From an uncultured Actinomycetes bacterium (GTDB lineage Bacteria; Actinomycetota; Actinomycetes; Mycobacteriales; SCTD01), in the NCBI GenBank assembly GCA_963784675.1, contig CAWASE010000016.1, positions 7,267-71,266 of the forward strand: DNA of 64,000 bases, read 5' to 3'. This document shows, piece by piece, positions 14,014-47,518 of the stretch (positions are counted from its first letter, which is position 1; each line of letters opens with the position of its first letter). The position numbers and the translations under genes are program-made. The notes under the pieces were generated by a model. The model was not told where the DNA came from, ran no database searches, and was given only the letters and a program-made list of their open reading frames with translations.

Positions 14014-14797
14014 TCAGGTGACGGCGAGCCCGGCCAGCAGGCGGTCGTGCAGCAGGCCGTTGCTGCAGACGACGCTGCCGCCGTCGGCGCCGGGGGCCCC
14101 GGACAGGTCGCTGAACCGTCCCCCCGCCTCGGTGACGATGACCTGCAGCGGAGCGAGGTCCCACAGCGAGACCTCGGGCTCGAACGCGCCGTCGACAGCA
14201 CCTTCGGCCACCAGCACGTGCGACCAGAAGTCGCCGTAGGCCCGGGTGCGCCAGACCGTGTCTGACAGCCGCAGCAGCCCCGGCAGGCGGCCCTGCTGCT
14301 GCCAGCCGCTGAGCGAGGAGTAGGCCAGCGACGCGTCCGGGAGCGCGTCGACGCTGCTGACGCGCAGCCGGCGTTCGGTGGCGAGCGCCCCGCCCGTCCA
14401 GGCGCCGAGGCCCGTCGCCGCCCACCAGCGGCGACCCAGGGCAGGGGCGCTGACGACCCCCACGCGTCGTGGTCGCGTCGACCTGCAGGGCGATGAGCGT
14501 GGCCCAGACCGGCACGCCCCGCACGAAGTTCTTCGTGCCGTCGATCGGGTCCAGGACCCAGCGGCGGGGCCCGGTGCCGCTCTCGCCGTCCTCCTCGCCG
14601 AGCACCGCGTCAGCCGGACGCTGCTGCGTCAGCAGCGTCCGCAGGGCGTGCTCGACGGCGAGGTCGGCGTCGCTGACGGGCGTCAGGTCGGGCTTGGCCG
14701 AGACCTGCAGGTCGACGGCGCCGAAGCGGTCCAGCGTGATCACGTCGGCGGTGTCGGCGAGGGCGTGCGCCAGGGCGAGGTCGGCGGCGAGGTTCAT
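14014..14797 (-). pseudogene. hisN: histidinol-phosphatase / inositol-monophosphatase family protein (HisN-like), frame break near 14465
   Basis: N-terminal part [25 protein letters not shown]...[25 protein letters not shown] (start ATG 14797). The C-terminal part [22 protein letters not shown]...[20 protein letters not shown] is in another frame (track ORF 14014..14463). The ATG overlaps the fabF TGA (ATGA). Confidence 0.8.
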
Positions 14798-15974
14798 GCC
14801 GGGCCCAGCACGAGCGAACCGTTGTGCCCGCCGAACCCGAAGCTGTTGCTCACCGTCGGCCCGGGCTCCCACGCGCGCGGCCGAAGCACGACGTCGACCA
14901 GGAGCTCCGGGTCGATCTCGGTCGTGCCCATCGTCGGCGGAGCTCGCGGTGGACGAACGACAGCAGGACGCTGGCCGCCTCCAGGGCACCTGCCGCGCCC
15001 AGGCCGTGGCCGGTGACGCCCTTGATGCTGGACACCGGCACGCCGTGCGGCCCGAAGACCGTGGTGACGGCCGAGGCCTCGGCCGCGTCGTTGAGCGGTG
15101 TCGACGTCCCGTGCGCGTTGACCGCACGCACGTCGGACGGTGACAGCTCGGCGTCGTGCAGGGCCAGCAGCATGCAGGCGGCCGCCCCCGCCCCGCCGGG
15201 GGAGGGAGCGGTGATGTGGTGCGCGTCGCACGTGCTGGCAGCGCCCAGCACCTCGCCGTAGACCCGGACCCCCCGAGCCAGGGCCGCCTCGCGCTCCTCC
15301 AGCACGAGCACCGCCGCGCCCTCGGCGATGCAGAAGCCGTCGCGGCCGGTGTCGAACGGCCGCGAGAGCCCGGTGCGCGACAGGGCCGTCATGACGGTGA
15401 AGCCGGCGATGGTGGTGGGGGTCATCGACGACTCCGCACCACCGGCAAGCACCAGGTCGCAGCGGCTGTCCGCGATCATCCGGGCGCCGGCGGCCACCGA
15501 GTGGGTGCCGGCCGCGCACGCGGTCGTCAGCGTCTCGGACGGTCCCTGCAGGCCGTGCCGGAGCGAGACCGACGCCGCGCCGGCGTTGGGCATGACCATC
15601 GGGATGGTGAACGGCGACACGCGACCGGGACCGCGGGCGGCCAGCACCGCCACCTGGGTCTCCAGGGTGCCGACACCGCCGATGCCGGTGCCGAGCTGCA
15701 CGCCCATGCGCGTGGGCGCGAGGTCGGGGAGCCCGCCGCAGTCCTCGAGCGCCATGGCGGCTGCCGCGACGGCCAGATGGGTGAACCGGTCGTGGTGACG
15801 CTGCTCCTTGCCGCTGAGCCAGTCGTCGGCGTCGAAGCCCTGCACCGACCGCTCGCGCGCGTCGGCGGGGGGCGTCTGCAGGCCCTGCCAGAACGCGTCC
15901 AGGCCGGTGCCGGCGGGCGAGACCACCCCGATGCCGGTGACGACGACCCGTCGCGGTGCGGGCACGGCCCGCAT
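14794..15974 (-). pseudogene. fabF: beta-ketoacyl-ACP synthase (KAS I/II, FabF/KasA-like), single-base frame break near 14940
   Basis: VVVTGIGVVSPAG, active-site Cys (TLTTACAAGTHSV), His residues ([19 protein letters not shown]) and [11 protein letters not shown]. Expected ...[19 protein letters not shown]...[15 protein letters not shown]. The DNA reads gagctccgccgacgatg where gagctcCcgccgacgatg would restore the frame (CCC read as CC). Confidence 0.9.
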
Positions 15975-15975
15975 C

Positions 15976-16245
15976 TCAGACCTCCTGCGGGGCAGGCGAT
16001 CCGGCGGCGAGCCGGTGCACCAGCGCGTCGACCATGCCGTAGGTCGTGAGGTCTTCCCACGCCTCCTCGGGCAGGGCGATGCCGAAGGCGTCCTCCAGCG
16101 TCATGCCCCACTCGATGGCGGCCAGCGAGTCGACGCCGAGGTCGTCGCCGAGCAGCGCCTCCGGAGTGAGCTCGGCCGGGGCGACGGACAGCTGCTCCGC
16201 GGTGAGCGCGCGCAACCGTTCGGACAGGTCGGCGGGGGGCGTCAC
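15976..16245 (-). CDS. acyl carrier protein (second, divergent ACP)
   Basis: Phosphopantetheine site LGDDLGVDSLAAIEWGMTLEDAFGIALPEE. GTG at 16245 after gggtgagggg. The stop lies 1 nt before the fabF ATG, with aggagg inside the 3' end. Confidence 0.85.
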   Translation of the reverse strand: MTPPADLSERLRALTAEQLSVAPAELTPEALLGDDLGVDSLAAIEWGMTLEDAFGIALPEEAWEDLTTYGMVDALVHRLAAGSPAPQEV

Positions 16246-16287
16246 ACCCCTCACCCTAATCAACGGCGGCTTCTACAGTCGTCGTTC

Positions 16288-17184
16288 ATGCGTACCGCGG
16301 TGATCTTTCCGGGCCAGGGCTCCCAGCGGCCGGGCATGGGAACGGCCTGGCGGGGCACCCTCGGCTGGCAGGGGGTGGCCGACGCCGGCGAGGTGCTGGG
16401 ACGCGACGTCGCCGCGCTGCTGCTGGAGGCCGACGCCGAGACGCTGCGGGCGACCCGCGAGGCGCAGCTGACCACCTACCTGGCCAGCCTGCTGGCGTGG
16501 GACGCCTGCGGGCTGCACCCGGTCGTCGTGGCAGGTCACTCTCTCGGCGAGCTCACGGCGCTGGTCGCCGCCGGGCTGCTCGACCGGGCCGACGGGCTGC
16601 GCCTGGTCGCGGCCCGCGGAAAGGCGATGCAGGACGCCGCCGACGCGCGGCCCGGCACGATGGCCGCCGTGCTCGGCCTGGACGAGGACGCCGTCGAGCA
16701 GGTGTGCGAGGGCGTCGAGGGGGCCTGGCCGGCGAACTACAACGCGCCCTCGCACGTGGTCGTGTCCGGCACGGTCTCCGGGGTCGCCGCCGCGGGCGCA
16801 GCGCTGAAGCAGGCCGGAGCCCGGCGGGTGCTGCCGCTGCCGGTGGGCGGCGCGTTCCACACCCCGCTGATGCAGCCGGCGCAGCAGGTGCTCGACACCG
16901 CGCTGGCCGCCGTCACCTTCCGCCCGGCGGCGCTGTCGGTGCTGTCGGGGACCGACCTGCGCGAGTACGAGCACCCGGAGCCGGCCGCGCAGACCCTCTC
17001 GCGTCAGCTCACCGCCCCGGTGCGGTGGCGTCAGCTGCTCGAGACGCTGCACCTCTACGGGGTGGAGCGGGTGGTCGAGCTCGGACCGGGCGGGGTGCTG
17101 GCCGGCCTGGTGAAGCGGACGCTGCCGGGCGTGCAGGTGATCTCTGCGGCCACCCCGGAGCAGGTCGCGGCGCTGGGTCGGTAG
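16288..17184 (+). CDS. fabD: malonyl-CoA:ACP transacylase FabD
   Basis: MRTAVIFPGQGSQRPGMG, active-site GHSLGE (VVAGHSLGELTALV), PVGGAFHTPLM. Only the last 298 codons of track ORF 15808..17184 are coding. Confidence 0.93.
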   Translation: MRTAVIFPGQGSQRPGMGTAWRGTLGWQGVADAGEVLGRDVAALLLEADAETLRATREAQLTTYLASLLAWDACGLHPVVVAGHSLGELTALVAAGLLDRADGLRLVAARGKAMQDAADARPGTMAAVLGLDEDAVEQVCEGVEGAWPANYNAPSHVVVSGTVSGVAAAGAALKQAGARRVLPLPVGGAFHTPLMQPAQQVLDTALAAVTFRPAALSVLSGTDLREYEHPEPAAQTLSRQLTAPVRWRQLLETLHLYGVERVVELGPGGVLAGLVKRTLPGVQVISAATPEQVAALGR

Positions 17185-17193
17185 ATTTTCGCC

Positions 17194-17445
17194 ATGGAAC
17201 GCTCTGAGGTGCTGCAGGTGCTGCGCGACAAGGCCGTCGAGATGCTCGAGGTCGAGGGCGAGGACGTCCAGGAGGACAAGAGCTTCGTCGAGGACCTCGA
17301 CGTCGACTCGCTGTCGCTGGTCGAGTTCACCATGGAGCTCGAGGACACCCTCGGCATCGAGCTGCCCGAGGAGGAGCTCACCGACGTCAAGACGATCGGC
17401 GCGTTCCTGGACGTCATCGTCGGCAAGCTCGACACCGCGGCCTGA
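17194..17445 (+). CDS. acpP: acyl carrier protein
   Basis: 83 aa, FVEDLDVDSLSLVEFTMELEDTLGIELPEEEL (DSL phosphopantetheine site). 9 nt after fabD. The stop overlaps the fabI start (TGATG). Confidence 0.92.
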   Translation: MERSEVLQVLRDKAVEMLEVEGEDVQEDKSFVEDLDVDSLSLVEFTMELEDTLGIELPEEELTDVKTIGAFLDVIVGKLDTAA

Positions 17446-18209
17446 TGCTGCTGGCGGGCCGTCGCCTGCTGGTCACCGGCGTCCTGACCGACCGCAGCAT
17501 CGCGTTCTCGGTCGCCCGGCTGGCTGCCGAGCAAGGGGCGACCGTAGTGCTGTCGTCCTTCGGTCGCCCCCTGTCGCTGACGCGTCGGGTCGCGCGTCGG
17601 CTGCCCGGCGAACCGCCCGTCATCGAGCTCGACGTCACGTCGCCGCAGGACCTGGCGGCGCTGCCCGACCGGTTGTCCGCGCACGTCGACGGCCTGGACG
17701 GGGTGCTGCACGCCGTCGGGTTCGCGCCACCGTCCGCGCTCGGCAGCGGTGTGCTGGGCACTTCGTGGGACGACGTCGGCACGGCGCTCCAGGTCTCGAC
17801 CTGGTCCTACGCCGCGCTCGCCCATGCGTGCGCGCCGCTGCTCGGTCGTGGCGCGTCCTATGTCGGGCTCACGTTCGACGCCCGGGTGGCGTGGCCCGGC
17901 TACGACTGGATGGGGGTGGCGAAAGCGGGGCTGGAGTCGGCCAACCGCTACCTGGCACGCGACCTCGGACCGCGAGGGGTGCGGGCCAACCTGGTCGCGG
18001 CCGGTCCGATCCGCACGATGGCGGCGAAGAGCGTGCCGGGGTTCGCCGGCTTCGAGCAGGTCTGGGACGACCGTGCTCCGCTGGGCTGGCAGGTCGACGA
18101 CGCCGAACCCGTCGCGCGCGCGTGCGTCGCGCTGCTGTCGGACTGGTTCCCGGCCACCACCGGCCAGATCGTCTACGTCGACGGCGGGTTCAGCGCCGTC
18201 GGTACCTGA
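17445..18209 (+). CDS. fabI: enoyl-ACP reductase, InhA/FabI type
   Basis: LLVTGVLTDRSIAFSVARLAAEQGA (SDR glycine-rich variant typical of InhA), YDWMGVAKAGLESANRYLARDLGPRGVRAN, LLSDWFPATTGQIVYVDGG. Confidence 0.9.
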   Translation: MLLAGRRLLVTGVLTDRSIAFSVARLAAEQGATVVLSSFGRPLSLTRRVARRLPGEPPVIELDVTSPQDLAALPDRLSAHVDGLDGVLHAVGFAPPSALGSGVLGTSWDDVGTALQVSTWSYAALAHACAPLLGRGASYVGLTFDARVAWPGYDWMGVAKAGLESANRYLARDLGPRGVRANLVAAGPIRTMAAKSVPGFAGFEQVWDDRAPLGWQVDDAEPVARACVALLSDWFPATTGQIVYVDGGFSAVGT

Positions 18210-18248
18210 GGTGCGGCCCGCCGGGGCGCGCGCACTAGGTTCTGGACC

Positions 18249-18464
18249 ATGACTGACTCCCCGCCGCCCACCGGCGTCAAGGCCAAGGCCAACGCCGTCG
18301 CCACGGACCTGTTCCTCAAGGCCCCGCCGGTGGTGCAGAACGGGCTGCTCAACGGCATCGGCAAGGCGCAGCCGGTCGTGGCGGTCGTCAAGCCGCGGGC
18401 GAAGCAGATCGGCGCCGGCGTGCTCGGTCTGGTGCTGGTGCGCAGGCTGCGCCGCCGGTCCTGA
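18249..18464 (+). CDS. small tail-anchored membrane protein, unknown function
   Basis: 71 aa with very high GC3, Lys encoded by AAG, and a C-terminal TM plus basic tail (IGAGVLGLVLVRRLRRRS). 39 nt downstream of fabI. Confidence 0.55.
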   Translation: MTDSPPPTGVKAKANAVATDLFLKAPPVVQNGLLNGIGKAQPVVAVVKPRAKQIGAGVLGLVLVRRLRRRS

Positions 18465-18468
18465 CGGC

Positions 18469-20037
18469 TCAGCGTGGCGGCTCGGGCTGCTCCAGGAGCG
18501 CCCGGACCGCCGGCCGGTCGACCTTCCCGTTGCGGTTGCGCGGAAGCGACGCCACGACGCGCAACGGCCGCGGCAGGGCGTGCGCCCCGAGCGCGCCGCG
18601 CACGGCGGCCTGCAGCGCGCGCGTGGAGACCTCGATCCCGGGGCGGGCGACCACGGCCGCGGCGACGTTCTCCCCCGACAGCGCGGAGGGGAGGCCGACG
18701 ACGGCGGCATCGGCCAGCAGCCCCGTCGACAGCAGCGCCCGCTCGACCTCCGCGGGGTAGATGTTCACGCCGCCGCGGATGATGAGGTCGACCACGCGGC
18801 CCGCGACGTACAGGTAGCCCTCGGCGTCCAGCCGGCCGAGGTCGCCGGTGCGCAGCCAGCCGTCGGCGGTGAGCGGCGACGGGGTGTCGCCCCAGTAGCC
18901 GGGCGTCGTCACGGCCGAACGCACGTGCACCTCGCCGGCCTCGCCCCGCTCGACCTCCCTCCCGCCGGCCTCCACCAGCCGTAGCTCGACGTAGGGCGCC
19001 GGACGGCCGACGCTGCCGGGTCGGCGCAGCGCCTCGACGTCGGTCAGGCAGGTGACCGGCGCGCACGTCTCCGACAGCGCGTACACGTCGACCAGGCGCA
19101 GCTGCGGCAGCCGGTCGCGGACCCGGTCCAGCGTGCCGGGGGGTGCGGGAGCACCGCCGAACACGGCCAGGCGCACGCCCGCCAGCTGCGGCAGCGCGAA
19201 GGACGGGGTGCGCAGCAGCAGCTCCCAGATGCTGGGTACGACGTCGAGCCACGTGACGCCGTGGTCGATCGCGGTCTGTACGAGCGACGGCGCGCTGAAC
19301 GACGCCATGGTGACCGCGGAGCCGCCGGACAGCATGGCCGGCGCCAGCTGCGTCACGTGCCCGGACACCCATGCGAACGGCAGGTGGATCGCGGTGCGGT
19401 CGGTGGCGGTGAGCCCGAGGGTGCGTGTGTAGAAGGCGGCGGCGTGCCCGGTCATCCGGCCGGTGACCTGGACGGCCTTGGGGTGGCCGGTCGTCCCGCT
19501 GGTGGCGATCAGGGCGTAGACCGTGTCCTGGTCGGGCAGCGGCACGGTGACGTCCCACGGCAGGCTGCGGCTCAGCAGCGCCCGCTCGGCGTCCAGGGTC
19601 CGGACGGTCCGTGCGTCGCTGCCGACGCCGTCCTGCCGCAGCAGCAGCCGGGCGCCGGTCAGGGTCAGCAGCGCCTCGACCCGGTCCGGCGGCGCGTCGA
19701 CGGGCACGCCCAGGTGCACCAGGCCGGCGCGTGCGCACGCCCAGATCGCGACGGCCGCCGCGAGCCCGTTGCGGGCCAGGACCGCGACACGGTCGCCGAC
19801 GACCAGCCCCTGCTCGCGGAGGAAGGCCGCGGAACCCTCCACCAGCTCGGCGAACTCGGCATAGGTCGTGCTGCTGCCACGCGCGGGGTCGACCAACAGC
19901 ACCGAACCGGCCGAGACCGCCAGCGAGGCCTGCAGCAGCGGCACGATGCCGGCCGGACGGTCGGCGTAGCACCGCACCGGGACGTCCCGCACGGTCTCCT
20001 GCACGAGGGCGTCCGGGCCGGCCTGGCGCGCGGACAC
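18469..20037 (-). CDS. AMP-dependent synthetase/ligase (acyl-CoA or acyl-ACP ligase, ANL superfamily)
   Basis: Only the last 522 codons of track ORF 18469..21078. ALIATSGTTGHPKAV (A3 motif), VYALSETCAP, WLRTGDLG, IIRGGVNIYPAEVE, PRNRNGKVDR. The GTG at 20037 lies 2 nt after the upstream stop. Confidence 0.9.
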   Translation of the reverse strand: MSARQAGPDALVQETVRDVPVRCYADRPAGIVPLLQASLAVSAGSVLLVDPARGSSTTYAEFAELVEGSAAFLREQGLVVGDRVAVLARNGLAAAVAIWACARAGLVHLGVPVDAPPDRVEALLTLTGARLLLRQDGVGSDARTVRTLDAERALLSRSLPWDVTVPLPDQDTVYALIATSGTTGHPKAVQVTGRMTGHAAAFYTRTLGLTATDRTAIHLPFAWVSGHVTQLAPAMLSGGSAVTMASFSAPSLVQTAIDHGVTWLDVVPSIWELLLRTPSFALPQLAGVRLAVFGGAPAPPGTLDRVRDRLPQLRLVDVYALSETCAPVTCLTDVEALRRPGSVGRPAPYVELRLVEAGGREVERGEAGEVHVRSAVTTPGYWGDTPSPLTADGWLRTGDLGRLDAEGYLYVAGRVVDLIIRGGVNIYPAEVERALLSTGLLADAAVVGLPSALSGENVAAAVVARPGIEVSTRALQAAVRGALGAHALPRPLRVVASLPRNRNGKVDRPAVRALLEQPEPPR

Positions 20038-20039
20038 GG

Positions 20040-21074
20040 TCAGGCCACCAGGGCGTCCAGCGTCGCGGTGCGGATGTGCTCGGCCTGGCTGTGAACGAGC
20101 TGGAACGCCGCAGCACGCAGCAACCGCTGCGCCGGTTCTGCCAGGTCCATGCCCTGGCCGCCGCGGGCGGCGAGCAGGGCCGTGCAGCACTCGATCGACA
20201 GCAGCAGCGACGCGGCGCGCAGCCCGAGCCGTTCGGACAGGCGCTCGGCCGGGTCGACCTCGTCGAGCAGGACGTACGCGCGCGTGCGCAGGTCCAGCAC
20301 GCGGGCCCGCAGCAGCTCGGCGACCGCCGGCTGGCGCGCGGACAGCAGGTCCAGCGCGGCGAGCGCGATGCCGAACGTCGAGGGCTGGACGTTGGTGTTG
20401 CTCGCGCTGTCGACCGCCGCCCACGGGGCGCGGTCCGTGAGCAGCACGACGTCGTCGTCGGCGACGAAGAGTCCGTCGAAGCGGACGGCGTGCGTGCTCG
20501 TGCCACCCATGGCCGCCAACGACAGCTCGCCGGCGCTGCGCAGCTGCGGCCGCTCGCCGGCCGGGACGAGGCCGAACAGCACCTGGTCGGTGTCCTGCAC
20601 GAGGGCGCCGGCGAGGATCAGGTCGGTGAGGCCCCAGCTGGTGCACCAGGGCTGGAAGCCCGACAGCGACCAGCCACCCTCGACCCGGACGGCGAAGACC
20701 GACGGTCTCGGCGTGCGCAGGTGGCTGTAGGCCACGCCGCCGAGCGCCCGCCCCGAGCAGAGGTCGGGCAGGTGACGAGCGGCGAGCGCGGTGTTCGCGC
20801 TGGCCGTCAGCATCTTCACGACCGGGCCGTGCTGGAACCACACGAACCAGGCGTCCGGGCTGGCGCCGGCGAGCACCTCGGCCACCTCTCGCTGCCGGGC
20901 GCGCGGGACCCCGCCCAGCTCCGGTGGACCGAACAGGGCCAGCAGGCCGGCGGCGGCGAGCCGGTCGCAGACCTCGCGGTCGACCCCGGCCCGCTCGAGG
21001 TCGGCCGCCTCGGCGGCGAGGTCGGCGGCGAGGTCGGCGGCCTCGGCGAGGCAGTCGGACGAGGTGACGGTCAT
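20040..21074 (-). CDS. acyl-CoA dehydrogenase family protein (short, ~344 aa)
   Basis: ACAD-like layout: WFVWFQHGPV, GGWSLSGFQPWCTSWG, C-terminal AQRLLRAAAFQLVHSQAEHIRTATLDAL. It is a paralog of 21947..23029. Confidence 0.65.
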   Translation of the reverse strand: MTVTSSDCLAEAADLAADLAAEAADLERAGVDREVCDRLAAAGLLALFGPPELGGVPRARQREVAEVLAGASPDAWFVWFQHGPVVKMLTASANTALAARHLPDLCSGRALGGVAYSHLRTPRPSVFAVRVEGGWSLSGFQPWCTSWGLTDLILAGALVQDTDQVLFGLVPAGERPQLRSAGELSLAAMGGTSTHAVRFDGLFVADDDVVLLTDRAPWAAVDSASNTNVQPSTFGIALAALDLLSARQPAVAELLRARVLDLRTRAYVLLDEVDPAERLSERLGLRAASLLLSIECCTALLAARGGQGMDLAEPAQRLLRAAAFQLVHSQAEHIRTATLDALVA

Positions 21075-21110
21075 GCACCGACGTTAATGCGCTGGTCCGC
21101 CGCCGGCTGG

Positions 21111-21902
21111 TCAGCGACCGGTGTCACCGACGCAGTGCGCGCCTCCGTCGACGTGGACGACCTGTCCGGTGGTGGCCGGGAACCAGTCCGAGAGCAGCGC
21201 GACGGCGGCCCGGGCCACGGGCTCGCGGTCGTTGGGGTCCCAGCCGAGCGGGGCGCGCCGTTGCCAGCTGGGCTCGAGCTCCTCGCGCGCCAGGGACCGG
21301 CCGAGCAGGGTGCGCTGGGGCCCGGCCGACACGACGTTCACGCGGACGCCGCGGGGACCGAGGTCGCGGGCCAGGTAGCGCGCCGTCGACTCGAGCCCGG
21401 CCTGGGCCACGCCGAGCCAGTCCTGCCCGGGCCACGCGCGGGCCGTGTCGAGCGACAGCGCGACCACCGAAGAGCCGCGCACGAGCAGGTCGCCGAGCGC
21501 CCCGGCCACCGCCGCGAGCGACCACGTCGCGGTCTGGAAGGTCTCGGCCACCAGGTCCCACGGGGCGGCCGCGAACCCGCCCGAGCGGTCGCCCGCCGGC
21601 AGGTAGGCGATGGCGTGCAGCACCCCGTCGACCCGGTCCCAGCCTGCGGCGCGCACGTTGTCGGCCAGCGAGGTGAGGTCGTCGGGCAAGGTGACGTCGA
21701 GCTCGACGACGTCGGCGTCCACGCCCAGCCGCGGCGCGACCCGCGAGGTGACGGCCAGCCCGCGGCAGAGCGGTGAGGTGAGCACGACCTCGGCGCCCTG
21801 CTCGCGGGCGGTGCGCACGACCGCGCTGGCCAGCGAGGACTCGGTGAGGACACCGGTGACCAGGACGTGGCGTCCCGTCAGCAGGCCGGTCGCGTGCGTC
21901 AT
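21111..21902 (-). CDS. second InhA/FabI-type enoyl-ACP reductase paralog
   Basis: Only the last 263 codons of track ORF 21111..24047. HVLVTGVLTESSLASAVVRTAREQGA, QDWLGVAQAGLESTARYLARDLGPRGVRVN, LLSDWFPATTGQVVHVDGG. Confidence 0.85.
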   Translation of the reverse strand: MTHATGLLTGRHVLVTGVLTESSLASAVVRTAREQGAEVVLTSPLCRGLAVTSRVAPRLGVDADVVELDVTLPDDLTSLADNVRAAGWDRVDGVLHAIAYLPAGDRSGGFAAAPWDLVAETFQTATWSLAAVAGALGDLLVRGSSVVALSLDTARAWPGQDWLGVAQAGLESTARYLARDLGPRGVRVNVVSAGPQRTLLGRSLAREELEPSWQRRAPLGWDPNDREPVARAAVALLSDWFPATTGQVVHVDGGAHCVGDTGR

Positions 21903-21946
21903 CGGCACAGTCTCCCGCAGCAGACGGCGGACATAGGCTCGGGCGG

Positions 21947-23029
21947 GTGACCGCCGTGACCCGCACCGCCGAGCCGGCCCTGGCGGCCGCGCGCCAGATC
22001 GCCGACGAGCTGGTCCGGCCGGCCGCCGAGCTTGTCGACCGGACGGTCGTGCCGCGCTCCCACCTGCACGCCTGGGGCCGGGCGGGGCTGCTCGGGCTGG
22101 CCGGTCCGCGCGCGGCCGGCGGGGCCGACGCGCCCAGGGCCGTCGTGCGCGAGGTCGCCGAGGTCCTGGCCGGCGCCTGCCTGTCGACCTGGTTCGTCGC
22201 CACGCAGCACGCCACGCCGCTGGCCACGCTGGTCGAGTCCCGCAACGACGCCCTGCGCGACCGGCTGCTGCGCCCGCTGTGCACGGGCGAGGTGCTGTCC
22301 GGTGTCGCGATCGCCCACCTGCGCCGGGCCGGCGCGCCGGCTGTCGCGGCGACGCGGGTCGAGCGCGGCTGGCGGTTCGACGGCCACGTCGGCTGGATGA
22401 CCTCGTGGGGCCTGTGCGAGGTCTTCCTGCTCGGCGGCCTCTCGTCCGACGGCCAGGTCGTCCTGGCGATGGTGCCGGCGCGGGACGGCGACGGGCTGGC
22501 GGCGTCCGCCCCGCTCCGGCTGGCCGCCATGCAGGCGACGCAGACCGTGACGCTCGAGCTCGACGGGTTCCTGGTGGCCGATGCCGACGTGGCCGACGTA
22601 CGGCCGGTCGAGACGTGGCTGTCCGCCGATGCGGCCAAGACCGCCAACGCCGGCCCGCACGTGTTCGGGCTGCACGCCGAATGCGTCCGTCGCCTGGACG
22701 GGGTGGCTGCCCGACGCGACGACGGCACGGCGGCCGCCCTGGCCCAGCAGCTGCGCAACGAGGGCGAGCGGCTGCGGCGGGTCGCGTACACGCTGCTGGA
22801 CGACGTCCCCGAGCACGAGCAGCTCGAGGTCCGACTGGAGGTTCGCGCTGCCTCGCTCGAGCTGCTCGTCCGCTCCGCGACGGCGCTGGTGGTGGCCACC
22901 GGCGGCTCGGCGATGGCGATTGACGCACCGGCGCAACGACTGGCCCGGGAGGCGCTGTTCTGCCTCGTCCAGGCACAGACCGCACCGGTGCGCGAGGCGA
23001 CGCTGCAGCTGCTGAGGGAGGCCTCGTGA
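21947..23029 (+). CDS. acyl-CoA dehydrogenase family protein (short, ~360 aa), paralog of 20040..21074
   Basis: WFVATQHATPL, RGWRFDGHVGWMTSWG, C-terminal AQRLAREALFCLVQAQTAPVREATLQLL. GTG start 44 bp from the divergent ER2 start. The TGA overlaps the next gene's GTG. Confidence 0.65.
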   Translation: MTAVTRTAEPALAAARQIADELVRPAAELVDRTVVPRSHLHAWGRAGLLGLAGPRAAGGADAPRAVVREVAEVLAGACLSTWFVATQHATPLATLVESRNDALRDRLLRPLCTGEVLSGVAIAHLRRAGAPAVAATRVERGWRFDGHVGWMTSWGLCEVFLLGGLSSDGQVVLAMVPARDGDGLAASAPLRLAAMQATQTVTLELDGFLVADADVADVRPVETWLSADAAKTANAGPHVFGLHAECVRRLDGVAARRDDGTAAALAQQLRNEGERLRRVAYTLLDDVPEHEQLEVRLEVRAASLELLVRSATALVVATGGSAMAIDAPAQRLAREALFCLVQAQTAPVREATLQLLREAS

Positions 23030-23815
23030 GTACCTGGACGCTGTGCGACGCCGACTGGAACTCCTGGCCGGACGGGCTGTCCGTCGCTGAGATCTTTGCG
23101 CAGGCAGCGGGTCTGAGGCTCCAGGGCATCGAGCTCGGGGTGTACGACGCTGCCGTCGAGCTTTCTGCGGAGCGCCTCGCCGAGCTCGCCGACGTCACTG
23201 CCCGCACCGGGGTGCCGGTCAGCGCCGTGCTCCTCTCGCTACCCGCCGAGCGCTGGCCCCGCGGAGCGCTGTCCGGCGACGTCGAGGCCCTGGTCGAGCA
23301 GGTGCGCGCCTGCGCGGACGTCTGCCGTGCCCTCGGCGTGGACGTGCTCGGGCTGTGGCCAGGCGCCGACCCCGTGGACGCCGAGATCGTCGAAGGTCTG
23401 CGCCGGTGCGTGGAGGCGGCCGGGGACGTCCGCATCGCGGTGGAGTACAAGCCCGACACGGCCGTGCTGGACGCCACGCAGGCGCTCGCGCTGTGCGCGC
23501 AGGTGCCGGGACTGGGGGTCCTGCTGGACACCGGACACGCGTACGCGCTCGGCGAGGACCCGGTCGAGGTGCGTCGACCGGCTCGGCGACCTGCTGCTGC
23601 ACGTGCACCTGGGCGACGCCGGACCCGGCGGCGGCGACGACGACCTGCCGTGCGGACGGCTGCACGACTTCGCCCCGGTCGTCGCGGCCCTGGACGCCTC
23701 CACCTTCTGCGGCTCGGCCAGCTTCGACCTCTACGGCGCCGTCTGCGACAGCGACCTGACCGGCGAGCAGGCCGTGCGCGAGAGCCGCGACCACGTGCTG
23801 TCGCGCCGCGGCTGA
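23026..23815 (+). pseudogene. sugar phosphate isomerase/epimerase (xylose-isomerase-like TIM barrel), frame break at ~23572
   Basis: N-terminal part ...RIAVEYKPDTAVLDATQALALCAQVPGLGVLLDTGHAYALGEDPVEV continues in the next frame as VDRLGDLLLHVHLGDAGPGG...FDLYGAV...RESRDHVL (track ORF 23327..23815). One extra base follows gaggtg. Confidence 0.8.
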
Positions 23816-24774
23816 TGCGCGCCGTCGTCGCGCGGGGTCCGGGCCGGTTCTCCGTCGAGCAGGTCGAACCGCCCCGCGGGCCGCTGCTGGTGCAGGTCGA
23901 GGCGGCCGGCGTGTGCGCGGCCGACCGCATGCTCTGGACCGGTCGCCACCCGTGGGGCGAGCTGGACTGGCCGTTCATCCCCGGGCACGAGCTGCTGGGC
24001 CGCATCAGCGCCTCCGACGGCCGGCTCCCGGTCGGCACCCGGATCACCGCCGAGGTGAAGCTCCCGTGCGGTGCGTGCGCCTGGTGCCGGCGCGGCGAGA
24101 CGCACCTGTGCCCGACCGGCGCTCACCTGGGCAGCGGGATCCCGGGGGCCTTCGCCGAGGGTCTTGCTCTCCCCGCCGCAGCGCTGGTGCACGAGATCCC
24201 GGACGACCTGAGCACGCGGCAGGCGGTGCTCGCTGAACCGATGGCGTGCGCCCTGCACGCCGTGCGTCGGGCCGGGGTGCGTCCCGGCGACAGGGTCGCC
24301 GTCGCCGGGCTCGGCGGTCTCGGAGCGCTCGCGCTGCACGCCTGCCGGGCCGAGGGTGCCGAGCACGTCACCGCGCTGGTCCGTACCGACGAGAAGGCCA
24401 GGCTGGCAGACGTACTGGGCTATGACGATGCTACCTACGCACCCGAGCCGGGCAGCGTCGACACGGTCCTTGATCTGTCGGGCGACGTCGACGCGGTGTC
24501 GGTGCTGCTGGGCGCGGTCCGCAGCGGCGGACGCGTAGGCGTCTACGGCGTCTACGACCGACCGCTGCCGCTCGACCTCAACCTGCTGGCCGAGTTCGGC
24601 GGGCTCACCGTCTCGGGCGGGCATCTCGCGCCCGGCTGCTTCCCCGACGCGATCGCCCTGCTCGGCGGCGTCGACGGCGACCTCGTCGTCACGGGGACCC
24701 ATCCGCTCGAGCGGCTCGCCGACGCCCTCGCACCGCCTGACCGTCCCCGTCTGAAGGAGATCGTGCTCCCGTGA
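23815..24774 (+). CDS. zinc-dependent alcohol/polyol dehydrogenase (MDR family)
   Basis: GVCAADRMLW...PFIPGHELLG (catalytic Zn), CGACAWCRRGETHLC (structural Zn), VAGLGGLGALAL (NAD fold). The ATG at 23815 overlaps the upstream TGA. Confidence 0.88.
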   Translation: MRAVVARGPGRFSVEQVEPPRGPLLVQVEAAGVCAADRMLWTGRHPWGELDWPFIPGHELLGRISASDGRLPVGTRITAEVKLPCGACAWCRRGETHLCPTGAHLGSGIPGAFAEGLALPAAALVHEIPDDLSTRQAVLAEPMACALHAVRRAGVRPGDRVAVAGLGGLGALALHACRAEGAEHVTALVRTDEKARLADVLGYDDATYAPEPGSVDTVLDLSGDVDAVSVLLGAVRSGGRVGVYGVYDRPLPLDLNLLAEFGGLTVSGGHLAPGCFPDAIALLGGVDGDLVVTGTHPLERLADALAPPDRPRLKEIVLP

Positions 24775-25418
24775 ACGAGCTCATCGCACAGCTGATCGAC
24801 GTCGGCCGCAGGGCGGTGGGCGCAGGGCTGGTCGTCGGTTCGGGGGGCAACCTGTCGGCCCGGCTGCCCGGTGCCGACGAGTGCGTCGTCACCTGCTCGG
24901 GCAGCCTGCTCGACGAGCTGACGCCCGACCAGTTCTCGATCGTCGCGATCGCCGACGGGACCGTCCGCGGTGGTCATCCCGTCCCGAGCAGCGAGGTGCC
25001 GCTGCACCTGGCCACCTACCGGGTGCGTGCGGACGCGAACGCGCTGATCCACCTGCACCCGCAGACCAGCGTGCTGCTCGACGCGCTCGGCCATCCGATC
25101 CGGCTGCTGACCATCGACCACGCCTACTACGTGCGCGAGGTGCGCTCGACGCCGTTCCTGCAGAGCGGGACGCCCGAGCTCGCCGAGGCGGGGGCGGCAG
25201 CCATGGCCGACGGCTGCAACTGCGTCATCCTGGGCCACCACGGCTGCTCGTGCGTCGCAGACACGATCGGGCTGGCGTGGAAGCGGGCGCAAAACCTGGA
25301 GGAGGCCGCCCGGGCGACGCTGACCATGCTGCAGCTGGGTGACACGACCACCGCGTGCCCGCCGTCCTACCTGGAGGTCATCCGCGCGAAAGAGGCTGCG
25401 TCGCAGGCAGGTCACTGA
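24771..25418 (+). CDS. class II aldolase/adducin-family protein (FucA/AraD-like aldolase or epimerase)
   Basis: GSGGNLSAR, PSSEVPLHLATY, IHLHP, ILGHHGCSCVADTIGLAWKRAQNLEEAA. GTGA overlap with the upstream gene. Confidence 0.85.
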   Translation: MNELIAQLIDVGRRAVGAGLVVGSGGNLSARLPGADECVVTCSGSLLDELTPDQFSIVAIADGTVRGGHPVPSSEVPLHLATYRVRADANALIHLHPQTSVLLDALGHPIRLLTIDHAYYVREVRSTPFLQSGTPELAEAGAAAMADGCNCVILGHHGCSCVADTIGLAWKRAQNLEEAARATLTMLQLGDTTTACPPSYLEVIRAKEAASQAGH

Positions 25419-25419
25419 G

Positions 25420-26823
25420 GTGCCGGTCGCCGGCCTCGACGTCGGGGGCTCGTCGGTCAAGGCGTGGGTGCAGGCCCCCGGTGCGCTGTTCGAGGCGACC
25501 GTCCCGCTGGTGTCGCTGCGTCCGGACGCGGTGCGCGTCGAGTTCCAGCCGGACGCCTGGGAGCAGGCGTGCCGCACCGCGCTGGCCGACGTCATCCAGC
25601 AGGCCGGGGCGCCGGGCTCGGACTATCTGGGCCTGACCGTGTCGAGCCTGCGTCAGGGTTTCGTCCTGCTCGACGGTGCGGGCGCCGCCCTGGGCAACGG
25701 CGTGCTGAACAGCGACCGGCGCGGTGCACCGCACGCGCAGGTGCTGGCGGGGACGCACCCCGTCACCGGGCACTGGCCGGCGCCGGAGCTGACGCTGCCC
25801 AAGCTGCTCGCGGTGCAGGCCGCCGAACCCGAGCGCTGGGCGGCCACCCGGCGCGTGCTGTTCGTGCACGACTGGCTGATCTGGCTGCTCAGCGGGCAGC
25901 AGGTCACCGAGATCTCCTACGCCTGCGCCGGGGCCATGGCCGACGTCCGCGCCCGCACCTGGGCCGGCGAGCTGCTCGAGGGCTGCGGGCTCGGGACGGC
26001 ACGGCTCGCGCCGCTCGTCGAGGCCGGCACCGTCGTCGGTGAGCTCCGGCCGGGGTGGGCGCTGCCGGCGTCGCTGCCGGTCGTCGCCGGGTGCGGCGAC
26101 ACGCAGCTCGCCGCCCTCGGCGTCGGCGGTCTCGGCGACGGCGTGATCACCGTCGTGGCGGGGTCGTCCACTCCCGTGCAGGCCGCGACCGCACTGCCCG
26201 TGCGCGACCCGCTGGAACGGCCCTGGATCTCCACGCACGCGGCGGTCGACCGCTGGGCGGTCGAGGGGAACGCCGGCTACCCAGGCACGATGAGCGCGTG
26301 GTGGACCGGCCTCGCTGCGGCGAGCCCGCAGGCGCCGTCGCGTCCGCACGGGCTCACCGCCGTCACCGCCGCCCCCTACTGGGCGCAGGAGACCTGGGAG
26401 CGCCGCCCTCCCGCCTCGCTGCTCGGCCTGCGTCCTGACACGACCGCCGACGACATCTCGACCGCCCTGCGCGAGGCTCACGCGTACGCCGTGCGGGGCA
26501 ACGTCGAAGACCTGGAACGGGTGCTCGGGCGAGCCGCCTCGGCCGTCGTGGTGTGCGGGGGTGCGGCCGCCGACGGCAGACTGCCCCGGCTGGTCGCCGA
26601 CGTCCTGGGCCGACCCGTGCACCACGCGACGGGAGCCGTCGGTGCGGCTGCTGCCGGCACCTATCTGGTGTCGCGCGCCGTCGGGGCGCACGCCCACCTG
26701 CCGGCGCTGCCGGAGCGGGTGCTGCCTGCCGGCGACCCCCGCCCGCACGACGGCCCCTACGCGGGATGGTGCGCCGCCCATGCCGCCCTGCGTTCCGCAG
26801 CGCTGACGGAAGGATCCACGTGA
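25420..26823 (+). CDS. FGGY-family carbohydrate kinase
   Basis: The GTG at 25420 gives VPVAGLDVGGSSVKAW. GCGDTQLAALGVGG. C-terminal VVVCGGAAADGRLPRLVADVLGRPV. Upstream codons of track ORF 25339.. overlap the aldolase. Confidence 0.85.
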   Translation: MPVAGLDVGGSSVKAWVQAPGALFEATVPLVSLRPDAVRVEFQPDAWEQACRTALADVIQQAGAPGSDYLGLTVSSLRQGFVLLDGAGAALGNGVLNSDRRGAPHAQVLAGTHPVTGHWPAPELTLPKLLAVQAAEPERWAATRRVLFVHDWLIWLLSGQQVTEISYACAGAMADVRARTWAGELLEGCGLGTARLAPLVEAGTVVGELRPGWALPASLPVVAGCGDTQLAALGVGGLGDGVITVVAGSSTPVQAATALPVRDPLERPWISTHAAVDRWAVEGNAGYPGTMSAWWTGLAAASPQAPSRPHGLTAVTAAPYWAQETWERRPPASLLGLRPDTTADDISTALREAHAYAVRGNVEDLERVLGRAASAVVVCGGAAADGRLPRLVADVLGRPVHHATGAVGAAAAGTYLVSRAVGAHAHLPALPERVLPAGDPRPHDGPYAGWCAAHAALRSAALTEGST

Positions 26824-27767
26824 AGGCCTGTGTCACCGCCGAGTTCACCGACGAGGGCGTCGTCCGCCTGGAAGCGCTGGGCTACGTCGTCGAGCGCTGC
26901 GGATGGGGGACGACGCGGCAGGCGCTCACCGGTGCCGACTACCTGTCCGCCGTCGACGGCAGCAGCCTGCTCGTCACCGAGATCGAGACGGTCGACGACA
27001 CCGTGCTCGCGACGCTCCCCGCCCTGCGGCTCGTCGCCACGGCCCGCGGTGGACCCGTCAACGTCGATCTGGCGGCCTGCGCGGCCCGCGGCATCCCCGT
27101 GGTGTTCACGCCGGCCCGCAACGCCGACTCGGTCGCCGACTTCGTGCTGGGCGCGCTGCTGTCGCTGGCCCGCGGCATCAGCGCAGGCGAGCGGCACCTG
27201 CGCTCCGACGGCTGGCTGGTCGACGGCGAGCTGCCCTACCTGCACTTCCGCGGACCACAGCTCGCCGGCCGCACCCTCGGCGTCGTCGGGTACGGCGCCA
27301 TCGGCCGCCGGGTGGCGCAGCGGGCGCGGGACGGCTTCGGCATGCAGGTGCTGTTCACCGACCCGGTCGCCGCCGGCGGCGTGAGCCTGGACGAGCTGCT
27401 GGAACGCTCGGACGTCGTGACGCTGCACTGCCCGCGGGTGCAGGCCACCCGGGGCCTGATCGACGCCGCGGCACTGGCCCGGATGCGCCGCAGCAGCTAT
27501 CTGGTGAACACGGCCGGTGGCGGGATCGTCGACGAGGACGCCCTCGTCGCGGCGCTCACCTCCGGCCGGCTGGCCGGGGCCGCGCTGGACGTGTTCGCGA
27601 CCGAGCCGATGCCGAGGGAGTCGTCGCTGCTGCACGCCCCGAACCTGCTGCTGACCCCCCACCTGGCCGGCGCGGCGCAGGACGTCGTCACCGCGCACAC
27701 CGAGCTGATCTGCGCCGAGGTCGAGCGCTTCCACCGCGGAGAGCCGCTGGTGAACGTGGCGGGGTGA
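26820..27767 (+). CDS. D-isomer-specific 2-hydroxyacid dehydrogenase (PGDH-like)
   Basis: GRTLGVVGYGAIGRRVAQRA, SDVVTLHCP, AALDVFATEP, LLLTPHLAGA. The GTG at 26820 overlaps the kinase TGA. Confidence 0.88.
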   Translation: MKACVTAEFTDEGVVRLEALGYVVERCGWGTTRQALTGADYLSAVDGSSLLVTEIETVDDTVLATLPALRLVATARGGPVNVDLAACAARGIPVVFTPARNADSVADFVLGALLSLARGISAGERHLRSDGWLVDGELPYLHFRGPQLAGRTLGVVGYGAIGRRVAQRARDGFGMQVLFTDPVAAGGVSLDELLERSDVVTLHCPRVQATRGLIDAAALARMRRSSYLVNTAGGGIVDEDALVAALTSGRLAGAALDVFATEPMPRESSLLHAPNLLLTPHLAGAAQDVVTAHTELICAEVERFHRGEPLVNVAG

Positions 27768-27774
27768 CTGCGCC

Positions 27775-28491
27775 TCAGGCCAGGCCGAGCGCGACCTCGA
27801 AGACGGCGGCGGCGGCCCGGGCCTGCGCGCGCTGCTCCGACGCGGTGAACGAGTCGGTCCAAGAACGGCCCGGCAGCTCGTCCCAGACGAACAGCACCGA
27901 GGCAGCGCGCATCTCGAAGGCGCGGGCGGCCGAGAACACGGCCGAGGTCTCCATGTCCACCGCGAGGTAGCCGGCCGTGCGCCAGCGCTCGACCAGGGAG
28001 GGCGGCTGTGCGAGCAGCGCCTCGGTCGTCACGGTCGTGCCGCGGTGGGAGTGGATCCCGCGGGCCACCAGCAGCGACGCGGCCCGGGTGACGCGGCCGA
28101 CGTTCCCCTCGGCGACGCCGCGCCCGCCGTAGTACTGGGACGCGCCCTCGCCGATGACGGCGCGCTCGGACAGGACGATGTCACCGGTCCGCACCTCCGG
28201 CTGCAGGCCGCCGCACGAGCCGATCTGGACGACGACCGGGGTCCCCACCGTGCCCAGGACGTGCACCGGCTCGACGGCCCTCGCCGCTCCGTAGGCGGTG
28301 CAGAACGCGACCGGCATGTCCTTGTACCAGCCGTGCCAGAGGTCGGGCATGCCCAGCTCGCGCACCTCTGAGAGCAGGGGGAGCCGGCTCTCCAGCGCCT
28401 TCTGGCGCCACCACGTGCCTTCCTGCACGAGCAGGCGGGGGACCTCGTCCTCCTCGAGCCCGAGCAGGGTCATCCAGCCGTCACGGTCCAC
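27775..28491 (-). CDS. nucleoside phosphorylase-superfamily protein (PNP/UDP-1 fold)
   Basis: VVVQIGSCGGLQP, GDIVLSERAV, GYLAVDMETSAVFSAARA. Confidence 0.7.
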   Translation of the reverse strand: MDRDGWMTLLGLEEDEVPRLLVQEGTWWRQKALESRLPLLSEVRELGMPDLWHGWYKDMPVAFCTAYGAARAVEPVHVLGTVGTPVVVQIGSCGGLQPEVRTGDIVLSERAVIGEGASQYYGGRGVAEGNVGRVTRAASLLVARGIHSHRGTTVTTEALLAQPPSLVERWRTAGYLAVDMETSAVFSAARAFEMRAASVLFVWDELPGRSWTDSFTASEQRAQARAAAAVFEVALGLA

Positions 28492-28511
28492 GTCGCCAGT
28501 CTCCCGTACCG

Positions 28512-29915: not shown

Positions 29916-29995
29916 CAGGGCAGGCTAGTGGCGCGCAGGCCGGCATCAACGCCGGTGCATGACCCGGGTAGGTTGACCCGACCTCATCAACGGGA

Positions 29996-31273: not shown

Positions 31274-31297
31274 GTCGGTCGAGAGCACCCTGTCCAG

Positions 31298-35690: not shown

Positions 35691-35704
35691 CTACCGTCCA
35701 GGCC

Positions 35705-35980
35705 GTGGACAGGACGGACGTGCTCAGGCAGGTGCAGGCCCAGGCCGTCGCGCTGCTCGGGGCCGGTGCCGCGCTGCCCGAGCAGACGCTGTTCGCCGAC
35801 GACCTGGGCCTGGACTCCCTCGCCCTGGTCGACTGGACGCTGGCGCTGGAGGACTGCTTCGACATCGAGCTGCCGGAGGAGGACGTGACCGCCGTGCCCA
35901 CCCTCGGCGGCCTGGTCGACCTGATCGTGCGCACCCTGGACGTCGGCCACGGGACAGCGGCTCAGCACGGCTCCTCGTAG
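35705..35980 (+). CDS. phosphopantetheine-binding carrier protein (stand-alone ACP/PCP)
   Basis: FADDLGLDSLALVDWTLALEDCFDIELPEED. The GTG start is only 14 bp from the divergent ligase start. Confidence 0.8.
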   Translation: MDRTDVLRQVQAQAVALLGAGAALPEQTLFADDLGLDSLALVDWTLALEDCFDIELPEEDVTAVPTLGGLVDLIVRTLDVGHGTAAQHGSS

Positions 35981-36328: not shown

Positions 36329-36355
36329 CTTGACACCTGGCGAAGTTGTGTCAAG
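36329..36355. promoter_or_regulatory. perfect 8-bp inverted repeat (cttgacac-N11-gtgtcaag) in the ArsR/TetR divergent intergenic region; candidate operator
   Basis: cttgacac at 36329-36336 and gtgtcaag at 36348-36355. Both arms contain ttgaca-like hexamers, and another ttgaca lies at ~36307. It sits just upstream of the probable TetR start at 36364. Confidence 0.5.
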
Positions 36356-36363
36356 GTGACCTG

Positions 36364-47354: not shown

Positions 47355-47518
47355 AGCGAGCTCCTGGACTTCGGTAGCTGGGCGACCCGCGGGGGGCCCC
47401 TGGCTTTGCGTCCCTGCGTCGCCGCAGGTTTGCCGTTGTCGATCCGGTCCAGACAGTCATCGGCGCCGCGGCGCCCGCCTTGACCGCGGTCCAGCGGGTT
47501 CACCCGTCCGAGCGGGCG

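Follow-up and report, generated by a model that had tools for sequence, protein, structure and literature searches.

The locus considered here raises a plain question. Do the genes at positions 14014–23029 of a 64,000-nucleotide stretch from an uncultured Actinomycetes bacterium (part of the 156,186-bp contig CAWASE010000016.1; the whole stretch is called the window below), which resemble those of type II fatty acid synthesis (FAS-II), make the bulk fatty acids of the cell or serve a pathway of their own? A preliminary description, made from the sequence alone, had suggested a dedicated pathway for a specialised lipid, and this stands in part. The reading that we favour, with a probability of roughly 50%, is an accessory pathway for loading, elongating and tailoring acyl chains on acyl carrier proteins (ACPs). 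It is the better reading because the FabD, the ACPs and the ketoacyl-ACP synthase (KAS) are non-canonical and a canonical operon is present in the same lineage; dedication does not extend to the first enoyl-ACP reductase (ER1), which is a housekeeping FabI. Genes were called by codon-position GC (window GC ~74%), followed by frameshift-tolerant segmentation; in the remaining ~55 kb of the window coding segments were chained and subjected to a frameshift-tolerant Pfam scan. Labels of the type L001–L128 denote related loci compared with the window.

According to the gene calls and the Pfam and NCBIfam scans, all genes, orders and strands listed earlier are correct, and they are compatible with the division into four adjacent operons. 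These are ACP1-KAS-HisN (minus strand), FabD-ACP2-ER1 with a 71-codon open reading frame (ORF; plus), ER2-ACAD1-ligase1 (minus), and an operon that begins with ACAD2 (plus), ACAD being an abbreviation of acyl-CoA dehydrogenase. The KAS stop and the HisN start overlap (ATGA), the ACP2 stop and the ER1 start overlap by 1 nt, ACP1 abuts KAS, and the start of ligase1 abuts the stop of ACAD1, all of which fits four transcription units.

The genes for condensation can be compared with a canonical operon found in relatives, which has the order PucR-fabD-fabH-acpP-fabF-accD-hydrolase-fabI (L007, L041–L043, L127, and L128), the PucR gene being fasR-like. The FabF-type KAS (14794–15974, minus strand) has both ketoacyl-synt and Ketoacyl-synt_C domains, intact Cys-His-His motifs and a PRK07314 score of 407.6 bits versus 387, but remains under the fabF equivalog cut-off (421 versus 493.75 bits). 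Its best PDB match is Thermus FabF (326 bits), with KasA at ~213 bits. More than 120 clusters of KAS orthologs lie at 79–88% identity, whereas identity to the canonical FabF of the six loci is 41–47%; those FabF copies are 78–83% identical among themselves. The FabD paralog, a malonyl-CoA:ACP transacylase (MCAT; 16288–17184, plus), is recognized by Acyl_transf_1 (114.9 bits) and narrowly missed by TIGR00128 (259.2 versus 260.9 bits). Its GQGSQ, GHSLGE, R and H motifs can be read directly in the sequence, and it shares 38–41% identity with canonical FabD. As for the carrier proteins, ACP1 (15976–16263, minus; PP-binding 41.7 bits, DSL motif present) scores under every NCBIfam ACP cut-off; its coordinates are those of the longest ORF, and translation probably starts some codons further downstream. 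ACP2 (17194–17445, plus; PP-binding 50.6 bits) is 74–87% identical in relatives versus 32–43% to canonical AcpP, the range for the ACPs together being 32–50%. By sequence, FabD, ACP1, ACP2, and KAS are thus a divergent second set, overall 35–47% identical to the canonical copies of the lineage and distinct from them, which agrees with the view that they are distinct from housekeeping enzymes.

The opposite holds for ER1 (17445–18209, plus), an InhA-type FabI with a PRK07889 score of 405.4 bits versus 299. It is 78–84% identical to the terminal fabI of the canonical operon in the same six loci, and all of its orthologs keep both GVLTDRSIA (the Gx5SxA cofactor motif) and WPGYDWMGVAK (Y-x6-K). 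A tree of FabI has a single clade, in which the copies from canonical operons fall inside the group of those from modules; this points to one ortholog of variable chromosomal position. Judged by this orthology, ER1 is the housekeeping FabI of the lineage, an ordinary shared enzyme whose gene, in this sub-lineage, follows the module and does not close the canonical operon. The locus was earlier credited with two InhA-type reductases; this count does not survive, since ER1 is the housekeeping ortholog and ER2, discussed below, lacks Y-x6-K in every ortholog.

Regarding the ketoreductase (KR) and the dehydratase, too much weight was placed on their absence. The content of the canonical operon is itself variable in the lineage, canonical operons here often come without these two enzymes, and many relatives carry a FabG1-type KR inside the module (L021, L025, L026, L038, L044, L045, L051, L055, L056, and L058). 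The module FabG copies are 80–82% identical among themselves; that of L025 reaches 364.7 bits with the FabG1 model (cut-off 420). Part of the apparent oddity of the locus (ER1, no KR, no dehydratase) therefore turns out to be ordinary. L128 has its FabG in the canonical operon, after accD and 72% identical to the module copy, so that FabG, like FabI, varies in its position; in the same operon an acyl-ACP desaturase gene (FA_desaturase_2, 15307–16197) stands between the hydrolase and fabI.

The absences themselves are real for the window, where the Pfam scan reports no ACP_syn_III domain (FabH), no further short-chain dehydrogenase/reductase (FabG), and no FabA/FabZ/MaoC hotdog domain (FabZ or Had type). 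Without ACP_syn_III the usual fabD-fabH-acpP-fabF order is missing as described. The same scan finds no canonical fab operon in the 64 kb, the order being HisN-KAS-ACP1 on one strand and FabD-ACP2-FabI on the other. FabH is also found in 0 of 13 first-tier loci in the metagenome scan.

The nearest relatives of the module outside the lineage are co-linear fabD-fabH-fabG-acpP-fabF operons from many metagenomes, which are probably its ancestral form. Identities to them are 53–64% for KAS, 42–56% for ACP, and ~50% for FabD, and their FabG is 51–71% identical to the module FabG of relatives. Those operons contain FabH, whereas the module has its KAS half inverted, has no FabH and carries ACP1 and ACAD2 in addition; in the window it also lacks FabG. 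By these comparisons the module looks like a derivative of such an operon, with FabH lost, an ACP added ahead of KAS, the KAS half inverted, and ACAD2 recruited.

Several versions of the module exist among relatives. The smallest consists of ACP2 divergent from ACP1-KAS alone (L004, L012, and L034); others include FabD and ACAD2 (L010 and L047), FabG (L044, L045, and L055), or FabG and FabI (L021, L025, L026, and L038), the last being an almost complete elongation set with KAS beside FabD-FabG-ACP-FabI. The window has FabD and FabI without FabG. The ACP1-KAS pair is kept in all first-tier loci, and the KAS-HisN order in L010, L045, L047, L048, L050, L055, and L057. In L004, L012, L034, and L044 the module is devoid of FabD, so this enzyme has to come from elsewhere.

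These observations bear on whether the FabH-less module together with FabI could be the sole essential FAS-II in an unusual arrangement, making bulk lipids and primed either by decarboxylation of malonyl-ACP or by the ligases described below. Such an interpretation fits the position of housekeeping ER1 in the same, presumably co-transcribed, operon as FabD and ACP2, the conservation of KAS, ACP2, and FabG at housekeeping-like levels (74–91%), the near-full set in the four loci just named, and the descent of the module from a genuine housekeeping operon type. It also fits the lack of a canonical operon in the window and the fact that, in the neighbourhoods compared, no single genome was found with both the canonical operon and the special KAS, which counts against our preferred reading as well. 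However, L007, which has the same ER2-ACAD1-ligase trio (ACAD1 73% identical), carries the canonical operon with FabH directly adjoining it, and canonical FabH orthologs are abundant among metagenome-assembled genomes (MAGs) labelled Frankiales or Mycobacteriales, as the relatives are. Moreover, modules without FabD, and the many without FabI and FabG, are not self-sufficient, and no first-tier locus supplies FabH. Weighing these points, we consider a sole FAS-II rather unlikely.

The main argument that the canonical and special sets coexist is indirect and draws on the FabD-less modules and on the FabH operon beside the trio in L007. In the neighbourhoods of special-KAS orthologs on contigs of 2.4 Mb and 0.8 Mb, and of canonical FabH on five long contigs, the two systems never come within 10 kb of each other, to which L007 is a partial exception. 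KAS with ACP1, divergent from FabD with ACP2, is best explained as an accessory FabH-less type II condensation module.

The second half of the system is formed by ER2 (21111–21902, minus), ACAD1 (20040–21074, minus), and ligase1 (18469–20037, minus). In relatives these genes usually belong to a larger unit, ligase2-ER2-ACAD1-ligase1, with ACP3 divergent from ligase2. Both additional genes are present in the window and were overlooked at first reading: ligase2 at 34125–35690 (minus; AMP-binding 236.3 bits) and ACP3 at 35696–35980 (plus; PP-binding 37.8 bits), ~12 kb away from ER2-ACAD1-ligase1. Because they form one operon with the trio in relatives, the system, as judged by synteny, extends past 23029 to ligase2 and ACP3. 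Orthologs of ligase2 (72–83% identity) lie directly upstream of ER2 in L004–L006, L009–L011, L020, and L021, and ligase1 (57–74% identical in relatives) is always beside ACAD1. ACP3 scores 36–48 bits with ACP models, below the cut-offs. In L004, L010, L020, L021, L024–L027, and L038 an ACP either stands divergent from ligase2 or separates a ligase from ER2; in L020, L021, L024–L027, and L038 it is part of the ligase/ER2/ACAD1 operon itself, with forms such as ACAD1-ligase-ACP-ER2 or ligase2-ACP-ER2-ACAD1-ligase. In L015 and L037, KAS is directly divergent from ACP-ER2-ligase. ER2-ACAD1-ligase1 with the displaced ligase2 and ACP3 is best explained as an operon for ACP-dependent acyl activation and tailoring.

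According to its domains (AMP-binding, 230.6 bits, and AMP-binding_C), ligase1 is an adenylate-forming enzyme of the ANL superfamily. Its best PDB match is the acyl-CoA synthetase FadD13 (193.7 bits); acyl-CoA synthetases are the best matches, and no fatty acyl-AMP ligase (FAAL) is among them. The best NCBIfam model, a long-chain-fatty-acid–CoA ligase subfamily, gives 308 bits for ligase1 and 356.6 bits for ligase2 (cut-off 476), and both ligases have a length (520–522 aa) like that of fatty acyl-CoA synthetases (FACS). Ligase1 thus appears FadD13-like, and the label "acyl-AMP ligase" previously attached to it is unproven and not specifically supported.

ER2 is a FabI/InhA paralog (PRK07889, 306.9 bits versus 299) with Mycobacterium tuberculosis InhA as the best PDB match (194.8 bits). 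Aligned to InhA, it has Gln in place of both Tyr158 and Lys165, and Ala in place of Ser94. In InhA, Tyr158 stabilises or protonates the enolate and Lys165 holds NADH (PMC9260719). All 22 of 22 ER2 orthologs lack Tyr-x6-Lys, having Gln, Leu, Ala, Ser, or Pro for Tyr and Gln, Arg, His, or Ala for Lys, while the remainder of the protein is 57–75% conserved and includes a conserved TSPxCR motif of its own. Some InhA mutants substituted at Tyr158 or Lys165 retain activity, so ER2 is called non-canonical here and not proven inactive; from its residues, reductase activity is doubtful. Annotation pipelines would label ER2 as FabI, which is probably wrong in function.

Regarding ACAD1, only Acyl-CoA_dh_N passes its gathering score (28.6 versus 22.9 bits); the middle and C-terminal Pfam domains stay below (Acyl-CoA_dh_2, 16.7 versus 22.7 bits), and no NCBIfam model matches. 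The AlphaFold2 model (pLDDT 93.8) shows the ACAD fold of a flavoprotein, with Foldseek TM scores of 0.77–0.82 to isovaleryl-, short-chain, and medium-chain acyl-CoA dehydrogenases (IVD, SCAD, and MCAD) and 0.74–0.77 to monooxygenases of the DszC/KijD3 type. Identity to any solved structure is at most 21%, and true dehydrogenases are about as near to ACAD1 as DszC, KijD3, and nitrososynthase are. The flavin isoalloxazine contacts S117 (the Ser/Thr of xSEP), W143, and T145 (the Trp and Thr of WITNG) show no variation across 44 sequences. In a profile alignment to the IVD-type structure 4kto, N226 occupies the position of IVD E254; S329, following an invariant H328, occupies that of MCAD E376, in a C-terminal alignment that is low-scoring. 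It is moderately secure, from these alignments, that ACAD1 has no Glu at either known position of the catalytic base.

ACAD2 (21947–23029, plus) is a paralog of ACAD1 (BLASTP, 43% identity, E = 2e-67) that differs from it by S117A, H328Q, and S329A. In L001, L010, L044, L045, L047, L055, and L057 the FabD-(FabG)-ACP2 operon ends with this gene. The pattern of the two proteins recalls pairs of catalytic and non-catalytic subunits, which is speculation. The label "acyl-CoA dehydrogenase", which pipelines would give to both, is probably wrong in function.

Glu-less members of the ACAD fold are known among monooxygenases (DszC, SfnB, methanesulfinate monooxygenase, and KijD3), and the TM scores to these are as good as those to some true ACADs. 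Their low identity to ACAD1 (at most 21%), the genomic context, which consists of ACPs and fab genes and not of sulfur genes, and the absence of a flavin reductase gene of known type nearby set the window apart from them.

This likeness also enters an alternative in which the two halves of the locus are unrelated neighbours. ER2-ACAD1-ligase with ligase2 would then be a catabolic or scavenging system of FadD/FadE type acting on CoA thioesters of an imported, possibly sulfur-related acid, and the KAS module a separate fab remnant. The FadD13-like character of ligase1 speaks for it, together with a transporter of the NitT/TauT family (ATPase, permease, and an SsuA-like binding protein with 106 bits), which lies beside ligase1 in L009–L012, L015, L016, L018, L020, and L021. 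The only NCBIfam matches of ACAD2 are, though weak, SfnB (48 bits, cut-off 431) and FadE16 (43 bits), the profile of ACAD1 weakly matches DszC and methanesulfinate monooxygenase, and trio and module lie apart in several genomes. In contrast, the window contains no NitT/TauT-family transporter, similarity to SfnB and DszC stays far under the cut-offs, at least 9 loci have ACPs within the ligase operon or divergent from it, KAS is divergent from ACP-ER2-ligase in the two loci mentioned, and ACAD2 within the FabD-ACP2 operon ties both halves by paralogy. On balance, two unrelated systems seem clearly unlikely. Sulfonate scavenging was not adopted as a reading in its own right, since none of the matches to SfnB, DszC, and SsuA comes near its cut-off, and is kept within this alternative. 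A cispentacin-type AmcF/AmcB system was also considered and set aside (197 and 28 bits, far under the cut-offs, with no AmcG partner).

Among known systems, canonical actinobacterial FAS-II uses the same families (MCAT, ACP, FabF-type KAS, and InhA-type FabI), and ER1 is the ortholog of its fabI; in contrast, the window has no FabH, AccD, or PucR, two ACPs and a divergent two-operon layout, besides the low identities and sub-equivalog scores given above. Mycobacterial FAS-II (fabD-acpM-kasA-kasB-accD6 and mabA-inhA) extends pre-made acyl chains and does not start from acetyl-CoA. It resembles the module in having FabD, a dedicated ACP, an elongating KAS, an InhA-type reductase, and, in relatives, a FabG1/MabA-type KR. 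However, none of the corresponding models reaches its cut-off (KasA/B 241.6 versus 560, AcpM 57 versus 146, InhA 326.5 versus 430, and, for relatives, the FabG1 score given above), KAS is nearer to generic FabF than to KasA, and AccD6 and KasB are missing.

As for the ligase operon, the preliminary description had compared it with sets of ligase, ACP, and ACAD. The comparison is apt, as relatives carry the ACP inside the operon; the FAAL type of the ligase that it implied is unproven. Friulimicin LipA/LipD/LipB is such a tailoring set, consisting of a ligase, an ACP, and an acyl-ACP dehydrogenase. Mycobactin FadD33(MbtM)/MbtL/MbtN (papers referenced by PMC5302061) has the same composition. The nocuolin cluster has NocH/ClyB/NocC,NocI and the ketosynthase NocG, that is, two ligases, two ACAD-like enzymes, and a ketosynthase acting on ACP-bound fatty acyl chains (PMC9486936). 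The window shares with these triads an adenylate-forming ligase beside a stand-alone ACP and an ACAD-fold gene (ligase2 next to ACP3, and ligase1-ACAD1), and with nocuolin also the numbers of ligases and ACAD-like enzymes and a ketosynthase. The mycobactin and nocuolin sets are the closest characterised analogues. Unlike the triads, the window has no nonribosomal peptide synthetase (NRPS), polyketide synthase (PKS), or acyltransferase acceptor domains according to the Pfam scan of all 64 kb, in line with the earlier remark that no NRPS or PKS is nearby; ligase1 resembles FACS (FadD13) and not FAALs, ACAD1 has no catalytic Glu, and a FabI paralog devoid of Tyr and Lys is an integral part. In contrast to NocG, the KAS of the window is of the decarboxylating FabF type and has a FabD partner.

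With gene identities, orthology, and synteny as observed, we infer the following enzymatic steps for the accessory pathway. One or both ligases would convert a pre-formed carboxylic or fatty acid to its adenylate and transfer the acyl group to a dedicated ACP, which would replace priming by FabH. FabD would charge the other ACP with malonate, and the FabF-type KAS would extend the primer. Keto-reduction would fall to a shared FabG, dehydration to an enzyme encoded elsewhere, and enoyl reduction to FabI, and the Glu-less ACAD1 and ACAD2 might, together with ER2, oxidise or otherwise modify the ACP-bound chain. Bulk fatty acids would be made by the canonical FabH-containing operon, presumed to be elsewhere in the genome.

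Several further points weigh against this pathway. In some relatives the trio and the KAS module are separated by more than 10 kb, or one stands without the other (L003–L009 versus L044/L045), and their adjacency may partly be inherited synteny, since both halves share a conserved region of the chromosome. No gene was found for a dehydratase, or for a thioesterase or acyltransferase by which the product would be released or placed. With ligase1 nearest to FadD13, loading of an ACP is only inferred, and the chemistry of ER2, devoid of Tyr and Lys, and of ACAD1, devoid of both known catalytic bases, is a guess.

If the accessory pathway is real, a widespread uncultured lineage of soil and cold-desert Actinomycetota would run two type II systems with one FabI and one FabG between them, and ligases, not FabH, would prime the accessory one. 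The latter would be coupled to two families without a characterised member, the dyad-less FabI paralog and the Glu-less ACAD-fold flavoprotein, and would thus provide candidates, open to testing, for novel chemistry on acyl-ACPs and for a lipid specific to the lineage. A bolder version, which we regard as very unlikely, is that ER2 and the two ACADs constitute a new redox machine for carrier-bound lipids. ER2 would still bind NAD(H) and no longer be an enoyl-ACP reductase, and its partners would be the ACADs, possibly as a hetero-oligomer of one catalytic and one degenerate subunit. Together they would oxygenate or desaturate ligase-loaded chains extended by the FabH-independent KAS, giving an undescribed lipid class of a widespread uncultured soil actinobacterial family.

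The KAS and HisN genes are each interrupted by a single frameshift, which raises the possibility that both are pseudogenes and the whole block a non-functional relic. The KAS frameshift lies near 14925 (CC, where CCC restores the frame), and that of HisN, a HisN-like phosphatase of the inositol monophosphatase family (14014–14797, minus; Inositol_P 145.5 bits; HisN TIGR02067 267.7 bits versus 275), at ~14450 (14440–14470) at a G5 run. The deposited KAS (P0252) is accordingly shortened to 374 aa. However, more than 120 ortholog clusters have ~393 aa, which is the length of the frame-corrected model. Furthermore, the 64 kb contain at least 7 frameshifts of indel type, ~1 per 9 kb, the others affecting unrelated, highly conserved genes: a large ACAD (8547/8549), a TIM-barrel gene (23571/23573), an AurF-like gene (twice, 37322/37327 and 37860/37862), and a polysaccharide-synthesis gene (38800/38802). 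Two of the frameshifts of the window coincide with short homopolymer runs, gene-like codon-position GC persists on both sides of each, and similar breaks are seen in related long-read MAG loci. The spread across the window in unrelated conserved genes points to assembly error, and the frameshifts look like assembly indels; decay of the locus is rejected as extremely improbable. A practical consequence is that proteins predicted from such long-read MAG records, in which indels stay uncorrected, are often truncated.

More than 50 related loci contain either the ER2-ACAD1-ligase trio or the KAS/ACP module, so the arrangement is not due to chance, and the KAS and ACAD1 families are strongly conserved. 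Homologs of ACAD1 at 65–78% identity are confined to MAGs and metagenomes that carry the label Frankiales, Mycobacteriales, or Actinomycetota. Among 185,579 species-representative genomes, a scan for ACAD1 yielded 38 loci, all of them in MAGs, including a few from Acidimicrobiia at 47–54% identity. An exhaustive profile search among 1.84 billion proteins gave 255 family representatives at E ≤ 1e-30, and 0 of 10 sampled came from a cultured organism; ACAD1 and ACAD2 form a small ACAD-fold family confined to MAGs. The locus is real, is conserved within a soil lineage of uncultured actinobacteria, and contains two uncharacterised protein families.

Two of the Acidimicrobiia loci (L035, 6842–11236, and L036, 9312–13169) have a different content. 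A ~50% identical ACAD1 homolog is followed there by two lycopene-cyclase small subunits, a CrtZ-like FA_hydroxylase, DUF3291, a PlsY-type acyltransferase, and GT2, a context resembling that of carotenoid glycosides, without ligase, ER2, or KAS. A carotenoid link was not adopted for the system, as these are only two closely related loci and the window has no carotenoid genes.

Among the remaining features of the lipid locus, the 71-aa ORF (18249–18464, plus) has good coding statistics (GC at the three codon positions 0.71/0.55/0.94). It has no match in Pfam and NCBIfam scans, and its membership in the system is uncertain. Scans of 13.4–23.4 kb for consensus promoters and terminators found nothing, and an Rfam scan reported no RNA element within the lipid locus.

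Next to ACP3 lie genes for a TetR regulator (36346–37038, plus; TetR_N and TetR_C_35) and for the AurF-like di-iron protein with its two frameshifts (37026–38152, plus; AurF 37.5 bits, compared with 42 bits for the intact ortholog of L029). The pair is found near the ligase operon in L001, L005, L009, L012, L020, L021, and L029 with 59–91% conservation; whether the two are functional members of the system is uncertain. A fragment of the AurF-like protein (window 37327–37860) is 88–91% identical across the lineage, above most genes of the cluster; apart from this it matches only R2-like ligand-binding oxidase, and that very weakly.

Downstream of ACAD2 (23026–29918) there are genes for a TIM-barrel isomerase/epimerase, a zinc-dependent alcohol dehydrogenase, a class II aldolase, an FGGY kinase, a 2-hydroxyacid dehydrogenase, a PNP_UDP_1 phosphorylase, and an aldehyde dehydrogenase, followed by an ABC transporter (30023–34052). 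Sugar genes also directly follow FabI on the same strand in L025, L026, and L038. The link of the lipid genes to a sugar or polyol that was proposed before draws on this adjacency alone. In L005 the place of the NitT/TauT transporter is taken by an ABC system of SBP_bac_8 type, 76–89% identical to that at 30023–34052 of the window. Finally, a c-di-GMP-I-GGC riboswitch (RF03167; 62.6 bits, gathering score 59) was detected at 47369–47443 (minus), just upstream of a GH5/cellulase-like ORF (46230–47240, minus) in a region of polysaccharide and cell-envelope genes.

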